Source: Candidatus Kapaibacterium sp. (lineage in GTDB: Bacteria > Bacteroidota > Ignavibacteria > Kapaibacteriales > Kapaibacteriaceae). Taken from it: a DNA stretch of 64,000 bases. Shown in pieces: positions 29,797 through 47,348 of this stretch. Position 1 is the first letter of the stretch, and each line of letters begins with the position of its first letter. The position numbers and the translations under genes were made by a program. The DNA lies in NCBI GenBank assembly GCA_044224925.1, contig JBGAJM010000001.1, forward strand, positions 113,021 to 177,020. Reading direction: 5' to 3'. Under the pieces are notes generated by a model. It was given only the letters and a program-made list of their open reading frames with translations. It was not told the DNA's origin and searched no databases.

Positions 29797-29842
29797 AAAA
29801 AAAAACGGGTACGACCATTTGGTCGTACCCGTTTTTCGTTTC
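29797..29842. terminator. bidirectional rho-independent terminator (A9 - ACGGGTACGACC - ATTT - GGTCGTACCCGT - T5)
   Basis: Perfect 12-bp stem flanked by a poly-A run upstream and a poly-T run downstream. It lies between the + strand lipoprotein gene and the minus-strand tRNA-Leu. Confidence 0.7.
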
Positions 29843-29846
29843 GATG

Positions 29847-29930
29847 TGCGGAAGACGGGACTTGAACCCGTACGCCCTTGCGAGCGCCACCCCCTCAAGA
29901 TGGTGCGTCTGCCAATTTCGCCACTTCCGC
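29847..29930 (-). tRNA. tRNA-Leu (anticodon GAG), type II with a long variable arm
   Basis: The reverse complement GCGGAAGTGGCGAAATTGGCAGACGCACCATCTTGAGGGGGTGGCGCTCGCAAGGGCGTACGGGTTCAAGTCCCGTCTTCCGCA has a 7-bp acceptor stem, anticodon loop TTGAGGG, a 15-nt variable arm and T-arm ACGGG-TTCAAGT-CCCGT. Length is 84 nt. Confidence 0.8.
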
Positions 29931-45100: not shown

Positions 45101-45423
45101 TCGAAGGATGGCTCGTTGCATCGGACCAGGGGATCACCGTGGCATTGGATACGGAGATCGACGAAGGTCTGGAACAGGAGGGCCTGGCACGCGAGTTCGT
45201 AAGTAAGATCCAAAAAGTTCGCAAGGACTCAGGATTTGAAGTGACGGACAGGATCACCATCCTGTTCAGCGCGGATGATCAGATGAAGTTGGCGCTGCAG
45301 TCCATGCGTTCGTACATTTCGACGGAAACACTTGCTGATCGGATCGAGGAATCCTCCCAGTCTCTCGATACCGAACTCGACATCAATGGTCGAACGGTGA
45401 GTGTGCGCGTTCAGCGCATATGA
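42184..45423 (+). CDS. ileS: isoleucine--tRNA ligase (long, type-2 form)
   Basis: PTVNGKPGIHHLLARTIKDI provides the HIGH motif (the P-x-x-N-G-x-P-H-x-G-H signature). KMSKS motif present. 1079 aa from MFEPLPDDLSYP. The track ORF is N-terminally extended. Confidence 0.9.
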   Translation: MFEPLPDDLSYPVLEEEVLSFWDANNIFATSLEQRAGAPTFSFFEGPPTVNGKPGIHHLLARTIKDIACRYKTMQGFLVRRQGGWDTHGLPVELAVEKELGITDKSQIDALGVDVFNAKCKEFVYRNISDDMGWRTFTRRMGYWLDMDTAYITCTNDYIESVWWALAQFHAKGLIYKGYKVVPQSPTLGTPLSSHELSQNYKDVRDPNVYLKLKITGSPIAAVVGASVMVWTTTPWTLFANVALAVGANITYVLVRNTRTVGETSVAELLVLAESRLSILEGDVEVLATFPGSDLVGSAYEQIFSDVVLDAVKHPNVLHVLAGDFVSTEDGSGVVHLAPAFGQDDFEMSKRYNLPVPQPVTPHGRFTNEIKAFAGRVVKTFTYADHKEEGSDRDIVKQLKLDGKIYRAAFDYLHSYPHCWRTDNPVIYYARDSWFIRSPEYKDKLIALNKTINWHPEDIGSGRFGNWLDEVKEWSLSRDRYWGTPLPLWVSEDGTDVFAVGSIAELSEGLYETEGGKRVPVKEAGIPVDLHRPFVDNVVFERNGTTYRRTKEVIDVWFDSGSMPFAQFHYPFENKELFEQSFPADVIAEGIDQTRGWFYTLHNISTALFDSVAYKNVVVNDLVLDKSGQKMSKSKGNTVDPYDIMSRFGADAVRWFFMVSSPIWKPKLFNEEDIAKTVIADFFRSLTNTYEFFAMYAKIDGHTSDAPLVPVAERPEIDRWIISKLNTVLAEYRTAMDEYEYTKACRAVQDFAINDVSNWYVRRNRRRFWKGEYDDDKRAAYQTLHEVLFSIAQMIAPITPFLGEFIFQRLRSPLDNVSVHCSILQTSDSGLIDNDLERRMWQAQQIVFLARSLREKAKIKTRQPLRRILLPVDSPTVRRQVQTVEDIILEEINVKAIEYVSDDTNIVQRSARPNFKVIGKKYGGLTQAVANAIKALSTEQVRRLEQSSVLALVINDETVQIDFEDVEIVSEDIEGWLVASDQGITVALDTEIDEGLEQEGLAREFVSKIQKVRKDSGFEVTDRITILFSADDQMKLALQSMRSYISTETLADRIEESSQSLDTELDINGRTVSVRVQRI

Positions 45424-45428
45424 AGGTG

Positions 45429-45460
45429 GCATACCGGGGGGTATGCTAGTTTTCATGTTT
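45429..45460. terminator. putative ileS terminator hairpin (GCATACC-GGGG-GGTATGC followed by a T-rich tract)
   Basis: 7-bp perfect stem 6 nt after the ileS stop. The downstream T tract is interrupted (TAGTTTTCATGTTT). Confidence 0.4.
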
Positions 45461-45482
45461 AATTTTCTGTGAGGTACGTCCT

Positions 45483-45731
45483 ATGGCAGCAGCAAAGAAG
45501 GCAGCAGCCAAGAAACCGGCAGCCAAGAAGCCGGCAAAGAAGGCAGCCAAGAAGGCAGCCAAGAAGACAGCGGCTAAGAAGCCAGCTGTAAAGAAGGCCG
45601 CGGCTAAGAAGCCAGCAGCGAAGAAGGCAGCCAAGAAGGCCGCCAAGAAGCCTGCAGCGAAGAAGGCAGCCAAGAAGGCCGCCAAGAAGCCGGCCAAGAA
45701 GGCCGCTGCAAAAAAAAAAGCAGCCAAGTAA
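45483..45731 (+). CDS. histone H1-like lysine/alanine-repeat basic protein; likely the N-terminal part of a longer gene (see A10 frameshift finding)
   Basis: 82 aa, composed entirely of (A)AKK(P)AAKK repeats. It ends 3 codons after an A10 homopolymer. Confidence 0.55.
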   Translation: MAAAKKAAAKKPAAKKPAKKAAKKAAKKTAAKKPAVKKAAAKKPAAKKAAKKAAKKPAAKKAAKKAAKKPAKKAAAKKKAAK

Positions 45732-45850
45732 GGCCTAGCCGTACTACTGCTAGTCCTACGAAGGCTTCGAAAGCGACTTCATCTTCAGCGTCCAAAAAGC
45801 GTACGGCAAAGAGTAATCCCGCAAAGTCCAAGTCAGCATCAAGTAGGAAC

Positions 45851-46708
45851 GTGACGACAAAGAAGTCTCCCAAGAAGTCTTCCGGGACAGTAAAAACTGC
45901 TGCTCCGGTAGTGAAAAAAGCTGCCGGAGCAGCTTCTGTTTCCAAGAAGGCAACCGCCGCGAAGAAACCCGCACCTGCGACCACTAAGGCCGTAGCTAAA
46001 AAGTCCGTTCCGGCTCCGAAGCCCGAAGCGGCAAAACCTGCAAGTAAGCCTGCAGCCAAGAAGTCCGTCGCTGCAAAACCTGCTGCGCCGGCACCTTCAC
46101 CAGCTCCTGCCCCAAAGCCCATTACAACTGCCGGTCCGAAGCCGCGCACGCAAGGAAAGACCAAGGCACAACTTCGTGGTATCACGAACTTGCCTACGCC
46201 TGCAAAGGTCGGTCCGATCCCGCAAGCCGTGCCGATGCAAAAGGCAGTTGCGCCGAAACAATTGGTGCCGATCCCGCCGAAGCCGGGTACGAAGTACTCT
46301 GAGAAGGACCTGACCATGTTCAAGGGCATCATCGAGAAGGCTCGAGTTGATGCGCTTGAAGAGCTTCGTATGCTCCGTGAGCGTCTCGAAGATCTCACGA
46401 ATAGCGAGGCCGCCGAAGAAAGTGCCATCTATTCAATGCACATGGCAGAGCAAGGTTCCGAGGCGATAGAGAAAGAGAAGACCTATGCGCAGATCCAACG
46501 CATCCAGGACTATATCCGCAAGCTTGACGAGTCGATGCAGCGCATCGCCGACAAGACCTACGGTATCTGTCGGATGTGCGGTATCCTGATCGCCAAGGAA
46601 CGACTTCTCGCCGTACCGATCACCACGCTCTCCGCTTCGTATAAGATCCATCAGAAGTGTCCGTCCGACGGCGTTGATCGTATCGTGGCCAAAGACGCTC
46701 TGAAGTGA
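45851..46708 (+). CDS. DksA/TraR-family C4-type zinc-finger protein with a Lys/Ala/Pro-rich N-terminal extension
   Basis: C-terminal coiled coil plus YGICRMCGILIAKERLLAVP...HQKC TraR/DksA signature. The track start is a GTG. The frame stays open and K/A/S/T-rich upstream through 45722 into the A10 run (I verified codon by codon to 45722), so the real N-terminus is uncertain. Confidence 0.7.
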   Translation: MTTKKSPKKSSGTVKTAAPVVKKAAGAASVSKKATAAKKPAPATTKAVAKKSVPAPKPEAAKPASKPAAKKSVAAKPAAPAPSPAPAPKPITTAGPKPRTQGKTKAQLRGITNLPTPAKVGPIPQAVPMQKAVAPKQLVPIPPKPGTKYSEKDLTMFKGIIEKARVDALEELRMLRERLEDLTNSEAAEESAIYSMHMAEQGSEAIEKEKTYAQIQRIQDYIRKLDESMQRIADKTYGICRMCGILIAKERLLAVPITTLSASYKIHQKCPSDGVDRIVAKDALK

Positions 46709-46718
46709 GCGCCGTTCC

Positions 46719-47348
46719 ATGCGTGCGATAGCGAATCGGGCCTTCCTCCTTGCCGCCTTCCTCATCGTGATCGATCAGATCACGAAGGTGTGGGTGCATA
46801 CCAACATGTTCCTGGGTGAGTCGTTCCCGCTTCTCGGTGAAGTGGTTCGCTGTACCTATGTGCAGAATCCCGGAATGGCCTTCGGCATCAGCTTTGGTGC
46901 CGGAAAGATCCTGCTCACGCTGTTCACCATCGTGATCTCCGTCCTGCTGGCATGGTATCTGCGTCGCCTTCGACCGTTCCATCCGCTCGTACGCGTGGCC
47001 GTGATGCTGATCTTCGCAGGGGCCGTCGGGAATTTGATCGACCGAATGTTCTACGGGGTGATCTTTGGAGAAGACCCACTGATGTTCGGCAAAGTGGTGG
47101 ACTTCATACAAGTGGACATTCCCGATGTGTCGTGGTTTGGAGAGATCTACACGCACTATCCCGTCTTCAACATCGCCGACTCATGCGTGTCGTGCGGCGT
47201 GGTTCTGCTCATCTTCGTGAGCAAGTACATGCCAACAGCAGCAGAGTTGAAGCTCGGTGCCTATCTGTCCAAGGAGCAACACGACGATGGAATCAACAAC
47301 GCAACCCAACCCCTCGGACTTTCTGGAGAAGATCGAGAAGGTCTATGA
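46719..47348 (+). CDS. lspA: lipoprotein signal peptidase II
   Basis: NPGMAFGI and NLIDRM...FNIADS motifs with 4 TM helices. Conserved ileS-dksA-like-lspA linkage. Confidence 0.85.
   Translation: MRAIANRAFLLAAFLIVIDQITKVWVHTNMFLGESFPLLGEVVRCTYVQNPGMAFGISFGAGKILLTLFTIVISVLLAWYLRRLRPFHPLVRVAVMLIFAGAVGNLIDRMFYGVIFGEDPLMFGKVVDFIQVDIPDVSWFGEIYTHYPVFNIADSCVSCGVVLLIFVSKYMPTAAELKLGAYLSKEQHDDGINNATQPLGLSGEDREGL

Follow-up and report, generated by a model that had tools for sequence, protein, structure and literature searches.

In a 64,000-nucleotide (nt) stretch of Candidatus Kapaibacterium sp. (contig JBGAJM010000001.1; hereafter the window, whose positions serve as coordinates throughout), two adjacent open reading frames (ORFs), found in the gene order ileS, ORF1, DksA-like, lspA, rluD, very probably make up a single gene read by programmed −1 recoding, with a run of ten A's (A10) near the end of ORF1 as the functional slip site. 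ORF1 (45483-45731, + strand), the product of standard decoding, encodes an 82-amino-acid (aa) Lys/Ala-repeat (KA) protein of histone-H1-like character and ends GCT GCA AAA AAA AAA GCA GCC AAG TAA. Relative to ORF1, the DksA frame is shifted by −1; it stays open from 45608 until the stop codon at 46706-46708, and its first ATG, GTG or TTG is the GTG at 45851, with none earlier. One added A, or one −1 slip, at the run yields a 408-aa product with zero internal stops, whose predicted fusion junction peptide is ...AAKKKSSQVRPSR... and whose predicted junction sequence is also written ...AAAKKKSSQVRPSRTTASPTK.... Comparison with related loci points to a conserved recoding site, accompanied, unusually, by a terminator-like hairpin that is likewise conserved and lies within the shifted frame.

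A sequence-only reading of the same DNA had described the A10 at 45710-45719, the end of the 82-aa KA ORF and a −1 frame that runs without a start codon as far as GTG 45851 and on into the DksA-like ORF, and all of this is confirmed; its estimate of a single gene of about 410 aa agrees with the computed fusion. It had offered three explanations, namely a homopolymer sequencing error, phase variation, or a programmed slip that gives both a short KA protein and a long fusion, and had proposed comparing the homopolymer in relatives, looking for a stop-rich spacer in orthologues and searching for a downstream stimulatory structure. In the comparisons reported here the A10 proved conserved, the −1 frame of the spacer proved free of stops, and a candidate stimulator, hairpin 1, was found directly 3' of the run; the comparative data support the programmed slip and lead us to reject the other two explanations. 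A conserved GTG/ATG column at 45851, hairpin 1 itself and an intragenic terminator-like hairpin at 45899-45943 (hairpin 2) are additions to that reading.

A run of ten A's fixed in length and phase

The slip site (45710-45719, + strand) has the phase GC[A AAA AAA AAA], which presents two in-phase A_AAA_AAA heptamers. Runs of this length are rare in such DNA: base composition predicts about 0.015 A10 runs per strand in 64 kb, and the window holds a single other homopolymer of at least 7 nt, an intergenic A9 at 29797-29805. We compared the locus with those of 80 GTDB species representatives, with JGI contigs for two close proteins, and with 28 metagenome matches to the pattern GC-A8-N(0-7)-GCCAAGTAAGG, of which 22 contigs were homologous; L060, L073 and L052, which contain masked N runs, were left unjudged. 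A run stands at the 3' end of a KA-rich ORF in 42 of the 80 GTDB species loci, with ten A's in 41 of them and eleven in one (L011), where the following codon begins with A and the ORFs remain split. All five JGI loci (L001-L005) have A10, as do 21 of the 22 homologous metagenome contigs, and it is retained in relatives whose DNA is 83-97% identical to that of the window (94.3% for L006). The homologues are annotated as Candidatus Kapabacteria or Kapaibacterium, or as Chlorobiota or Ignavibacteria metagenome-assembled genomes (MAGs). Two other hits of the metagenome scan, L112 (A8) and L105 (A10), were rejected as unrelated chance matches.

The phase of the run is always NNA AAA AAA AAA. Phase and length are equal in all 57 analysed loci, the one A11 locus that is still split included, and each of the 57 carries a slippery heptamer of the form X_XXY_YYZ in 0-frame phase. 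A 0-frame stop follows 0-9 nt past the run in every locus; in the window it is the TAA at 45729-45731 (+ strand), 9 nt past the run. Elsewhere in ORF1 lysine is encoded by AAG 1665 times and by AAA 136 times (92% AAG), so the AAA AAA AAA of the run is held by selection at the nucleotide level. The tract is also an A/T run of at least nine whose length is kept beyond coding need, as transcriptional realignment calls for. ORF1 is itself constrained in its own frame, with a ratio of nonsynonymous to synonymous change (pN/pS) of 0.24 across the A10 clade; its profile matches to H1-like and HC2 families are weak, all under the cut-off.

An open −1 frame and a conserved start column

Between the 0-frame stop and the annotated DksA start lies an S/T/K/A-rich linker (45732-45850, + strand) without a start codon, which by its stop counts is readable in the −1 frame only. 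From the 0-frame stop to the first conserved start, 41 unique sequences together offer 1876 codons in the −1 frame and 0 stops among them; the other two frames of the same spacer contain 43 and 130 stops, and shuffling predicts about 82. Spacer length differs between loci (116 to 161 nt) and the DksA frame is at −1 in all of them, so the accepted indels have all been multiples of three (the window and L001, for instance, differ by one 3-nt indel). As in known cases of programmed ribosomal frameshifting, the −1 frame is thus open and conserved into a functional domain.

The linker ends at a conserved GTG (45851-45853, + strand), the annotated DksA start and a possible site of internal initiation. 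This column reads GTG in 32, ATG in 6 and GCG in 8 of 46 sequences, and AGT AGG AAC stands ahead of it in 30 of the 46. A DksA-only product through initiation here is plausible, and it leaves the open frame upstream unexplained.

A hairpin abutting the run

Hairpin 1 (45720-45750; listed on the + strand, its strand being ambiguous) has the 0-frame stop within it and is a candidate stimulator of frameshifting. A fold begins 0-3 nt past the run in 40 of 40 unique sequences, with a mean free energy (dG) of −10.8 kcal/mol against −7.2 kcal/mol in control windows of the same loci (p ~1e-9). With the structure named by hand, 78% of the cells in the alignment are paired, compared with 21-50% when the partner is slid, and changes on both sides occur in 31 cells, a number reached by 0 of 500 shuffles. 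The stems themselves differ by lineage (GCC.AGU.AGGG, CGGGA, UGAGCU or UAGAGCU).

A single origin from a fused ancestor

All loci with the run group together as a clade in a neighbour-joining tree of the DksA domain. In the sister clades and those further out there is one ORF of about 300-465 aa; its N-terminus is K/A-rich, and an ATG stands only a few codons from the stop upstream. Because the A10 loci are monophyletic and the sister clades have one ORF, the split arose once from a fused ancestor and was then maintained. Among the homologues the N-terminal tails are K/A/S/T-rich and range from almost none to more than 300 aa, and some single-ORF relatives, P0092 among them, hold PF07382 (HC2, H1-like) and PF01258 in one protein. 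The run, its phase, the nearby stop, the open −1 frame and both hairpins are all conserved within the A10 clade.

Two of the compared loci have peculiarities of their own. L047 (1900-3417; JAJRTW010000107.1) contains a 505-codon open frame in which about 310 KA/T-rich repeat codons are in frame with the DksA domain and no ATG, GTG or TTG precedes codon 311; it may use a non-canonical start or hold another unannotated feature. In L054, an in-frame A9 (2445-2453) lies inside an outer-clade single-ORF homologue; the gene is not split, and the A9 may be slippage-prone.

One gene or two?

Could the two frames simply be two independent genes, the KA gene ending at its TAA and the DksA-like gene starting at the GTG/ATG of 45851? 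On this account the A10 and hairpin 1 would have some other role, for example as an mRNA 3' stabiliser or as a minus-strand hairpin+T10 terminator, and hairpin 2 would attenuate the downstream gene. The start column lends it some weight, since 38 of 46 sequences have GTG or ATG there and Val codons other than GTG are absent, as does the product from 45851, which begins M/V-T-T-K-K and resembles the N-termini of the single-ORF relatives; moreover, read on the minus strand, hairpin 1 with T10 is scored as a terminator, and the reverse complement of the hairpin is the more stable fold. However, two genes would leave unexplained why stops are avoided upstream of the start in the −1 frame only, why the −1 relation is invariant despite spacer indels, and why a strict in-phase AAA AAA AAA is kept against the AAG preference of ORF1; the start column is GCG at 8 loci, and no minus-strand gene ends at hairpin 1. 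Taken together, we regard two separate genes as improbable.

Still less credible is phase variation, in which slippage of the A tract at the DNA level would let members of a population alternate between a fusion-on state (A11 or A8) and a fusion-off state (A10). Homopolymers this long are mutable, and the remaining homologous metagenome contig, L090 (Ga0255308_1005136, 1.6 kb, run at ~1036), has A12 between flanks identical to those of the A10 contigs L095 and L108, which reflects either an assembly error or rare population variation. Yet this sole variant does not restore the fusion frame, no in-frame A11 or A8 allele was seen among more than 60 loci, and A10 is the consensus in essentially all species and contigs, whereas contingency loci are normally mixed in length across strains; with run length fixed rather than polymorphic, we give phase variation very little credence.

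A homopolymer sequencing or assembly error concealing a true A11 and a plain 408-aa ORF is effectively refuted, for although long homopolymers are error-prone in some chemistries, this account requires more than 60 assemblies, built independently in different projects and by different assemblers (SPAdes, MEGAHIT, JGI), all to have gone wrong alike and in one phase, in lineages whose spacers diverge by up to ~50%, while the A11 of L011 is owed to the first A of the next codon and the 0-frame stop is kept close downstream throughout.

Several observations weigh against recoding as we propose it. The linker has a pN/pS of 0.64 in the fusion frame, 0.73 in another frame and 1.66 in the third, values that do not discriminate the frames, and its position-wise differences are only weakly periodic; purifying selection on it is weak, and the case that it is coding is built on the avoidance of stops and the constant frame. 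From the conserved GTG/ATG at 45851, a DksA-only protein could arise without any shift. As for hairpin 1, RNAalifold run alone on the 46 nt past the run found no consensus structure, the wobble test for strand is ambiguous (36 G-U against 41 A-C cells), and the more stable reverse complement reads as a hairpin followed by T10. Its position is also tight: at 0-3 nt past the run (3-6 nt past the first heptamer), it is nearer than the usual spacer of 5-9 nt would place it, unless the slip takes place on the first heptamer. Expression of the fusion, like the occurrence and rate of the shift, the machine that slips and the role of hairpin 2, is something we infer from sequence. A protein-database search with junction-peptide alignment for fused alleles returned nothing and was uninformative, with low-complexity words saturating the candidates.

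How the shift may occur

Under programmed recoding, standard decoding would stop at the TAA 9 nt past the A10 and give the ~80-aa Lys/Ala-repeat, H1-like DNA-binding protein, while a fraction of expression would move to the −1 frame at the run. Shifted translation would cross the linker into the DksA/TraR-like domain and produce a 408-aa H1-like/DksA-like fusion, and the GTG/ATG at 45851 may additionally give a DksA-only product. Two routes into the −1 frame can be envisaged, and both may contribute. By a ribosomal route, tRNA-Lys(UUU) would slip by −1 on A_AAA_AAA, with help from hairpin 1 and from the closeness of the 0-frame stop. In favour of this route are the phase of the heptamers, the hairpin on their 3' side, the stop next to the run and a tRNA-Lys(UUU) encoded within the window. 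By a transcriptional route, RNA polymerase would insert one A on the T10 template. Here the support comes from the strict retention of ten A's rather than seven, from the efficiency of RNA-polymerase slippage at runs of nine or more A/T (PMC5009743), and from the dnaX genes of Chlorobi, which are split at A10 runs and for which transcriptional realignment has been proposed (PMC3711429). In Thermus dnaX, insertion of one A is the dominant slipped species; an insertion of this type would give exactly the fusion frame at the window locus.

One parallel is dnaX, whose tau and gamma products arise in E. coli by −1 ribosomal frameshifting at A_AAA_AAG with a 3' hairpin, and in Thermus (A9) and, as proposed, Chlorobi (A10) by transcriptional slippage (PMC5009743, PMC3711429). 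The dnaX gene is chromosomal and gives two nested products from a poly-A site, as predicted for the window locus. In Chlorobi, a related phylum, the run is also ten, the long product requires the shift and a 0-frame stop lies past the site. The gene family is different, and in the window a hairpin abuts the run and a terminator-like hairpin follows ~180 nt downstream in the shifted frame.

A second parallel is offered by the −1 frameshifting that yields OrfAB beside OrfA in IS3-family elements; its site, A_AAA_AAG or A_AAA_AAA, is followed by a stem-loop or pseudoknot on the 3' side, and the orfA stop is close by. The window likewise has an A-heptamer in phase, a candidate 3' structure, a 0-frame stop soon after the site and, as predicted products, a short DNA-binding protein and a fusion; by contrast, this locus is not a mobile element, its run is 10 rather than 7 nt, and it sits in a housekeeping ileS-X-lspA-rluD neighbourhood. 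Literature searches for recoding in the DksA family or in Kapabacteria found no report.

A terminator-like hairpin inside the shifted frame

Hairpin 2 consists of a 14-bp G+C-rich stem (45899-45933, + strand) and a U-rich tail, TTCTGTTTCC, that extends to 45943. It begins 48 nt past the annotated GTG and lies 171-212 nt past the run in every A10-clade locus, with a dG of −23 to −43 kcal/mol. As a structure it is much stronger than hairpin 1: 97.4% of cells are paired, compared with 25-52% when the partner is slid; 52 cells show changes on both sides, a number reached by 0 of 500 shuffles; and compensatory changes affect 8 of 11 pairs. G-U cells outnumber A-C cells by 37 to 8, so hairpin 2 is favoured as + strand RNA. 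Across 47 loci the 10 nt past the hairpin contain a mean of 5.7 T, and the residues encoded by the tail vary among S, F, V, I, L and Y, all with U-rich codons, a pattern that fits selection for the U-tract. With a G+C-rich stem-loop, an immediate U-tract and covariation, hairpin 2 looks like an intrinsic terminator. A search of 45300-46300 against Rfam gave no match.

A comparable hairpin was not found in the single-ORF relatives, so run, hairpin 1 and hairpin 2 alike belong to the A10 clade only. Of 47 loci, 13 lack any in-frame start between hairpin 2 and the DksA domain, and none of the starts in that interval is conserved; the DksA domain would thus have to be translated by ribosomes that pass through hairpin 2.

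Why place a terminator inside a gene? The most economical idea, which we put forward tentatively and rate below even, is that the slip at A10 gates transcription as well as translation, making hairpin 2 a recoding-gated attenuator. In the unshifted case the leading ribosome would halt at the 0-frame TAA, the linker RNA would be left bare and hairpin 2 would terminate transcription, giving a short mRNA and the H1-like protein only. On an A11 transcript, or after a −1 shift, the ribosome would trail the polymerase across the linker and block formation of the terminator hairpin, and such shifted events alone would extend the mRNA into the DksA-like domain and lspA-rluD. If this is true, the attenuator would set the ratio of the nucleoid protein to its RNA-polymerase-binding fusion. 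Translation-coupled attenuation at E. coli pyrE/rph is comparable in that a terminator hairpin lies in or just past an upstream frame and the reading frame decides whether ribosomes arrive and, hence, whether transcription reads through; the rph-1 frameshift is a laboratory mutation and not programmed, and for hairpin 2 the corresponding logic is our proposal, purely inferred.

The DksA-like domain and its relatives

Downstream of hairpin 2, a K/A/P-rich segment of the DksA-frame ORF (45944-46279, + strand; ~110 aa) is limited to the lineage of the window (L001, L006, L086, L089, L092 and L093), and in its place the remaining loci of the A10 clade have a stretch of 12-30 residues. The DksA/TraR-like domain with its stop codon occupies 46280-46708 (+ strand) and evolves under constraint, with a pN/pS of 0.16. 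Pfam PF01258 (zf-dskA_traR) matches it at 26.7 bits against a gathering cut-off of 24.9, over profile positions 2-27 of 36, whereas the DksA equivalogs score far under their cut-offs (NF033459, 43.8 against 105; TIGR02420, 41 against 115.5), as does the yteA subfamily (68.1 against 134.4). Compared by eye with the E. coli DksA motif, the segment at 46556-46660 keeps CxxC (CRMC) and has S..Y at the positions of the second Cys pair (C2-type), and the four-Cys zinc finger CxxC-x17-CxxC is absent; a conserved Cys, in ...HQKCP, stands 7 residues further on. At the coiled-coil tip the sequence is HMAEQGSE, not DxxDxA. By sequence, then, the domain belongs to the DksA/TraR superfamily and is not a canonical DksA. 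An exact-sequence look-up of the window's two proteins in a protein collection gave no match.

The nearest PDB entry is 6PTG, the Chlamydia DksA (E = 1e-8). Chlamydia DksA shares with our domain a reduced Cys motif and a gene immediately upstream of lspA (PMC9126822), and differs from it in having neither an H1-like tail nor recoding.

The sequence-only reading had regarded a DksA/TraR protein with an H1-like tail as unusual in itself; this architecture has precedents in Streptomyces DdbA and in single-ORF Kapabacteria relatives. DdbA of Streptomyces coelicolor (SCO2075) joins an H1-like DNA-binding N-domain to a DksA-like C-domain; it is a nucleoid protein that binds and condenses DNA via its tail and affects stress transcription (PMC3643593). 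Its gene adjoins lsp (SCO2074; PMC3643593, PMC4941574), just as the window locus lies beside a lipoprotein signal peptidase gene, lspA, which starts at 46719, 10 nt past the DksA stop. The comparison is one of architecture and gene neighbourhood, not of sequence orthology to SCO2075. In DdbA both domains are encoded by one ORF, the zinc finger is of the C4 type and the D71/D74 equivalents are conserved, whereas in the window the domains stand in separate frames joined solely via the A10, the second pair of cysteines is missing and the tip has another sequence. A DdbA-like two-domain polypeptide is thus encoded directly in single-ORF relatives such as P0092, and in the window would be made solely if the A10 shift occurs.

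Few conserved programmed frameshifts are known in non-mobile bacterial genes; dnaX, prfB, copA and csoS2 are examples, with a handful more. The site described here belongs to a gene for a transcription factor, and at least 42 species-level lineages of this uncultured group have retained it. If the shift operates, the locus would have two functional states: in one the H1-like nucleoid protein is free, and in the other its tail is attached to a DksA-like, RNA-polymerase-binding domain. This would be a natural experiment on how DNA binding of a chromatin-like kind is coupled to the control of transcription, a link already proposed for Streptomyces DdbA. The co-evolved intragenic terminator likewise offers a testable case of recoding linked to attenuation. 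For annotation, the MAG records call two unrelated short genes, and the annotated DksA start is probably wrong or incomplete.

Neighbouring features

Directly past the ileS stop, and ~35 nt ahead of the ORF1 ATG, lies a further terminator-like hairpin (45427-45448, + strand); L002 has a hairpin at the matching place with another stem sequence. Downstream, the longest form of the rluD-like ORF, from GTG 47257, shares its first 92 nt with the end of lspA (47257-47348, + strand), and its real start is probably further downstream; in L001 the gene calls for lspA and rluD overlap too, by 59 nt. The intergenic A9 at 29797-29805 is located just downstream, on the minus strand, of tRNA-Leu(GAG) (29846-29930), where it is probably part of a hairpin+T9 terminator.

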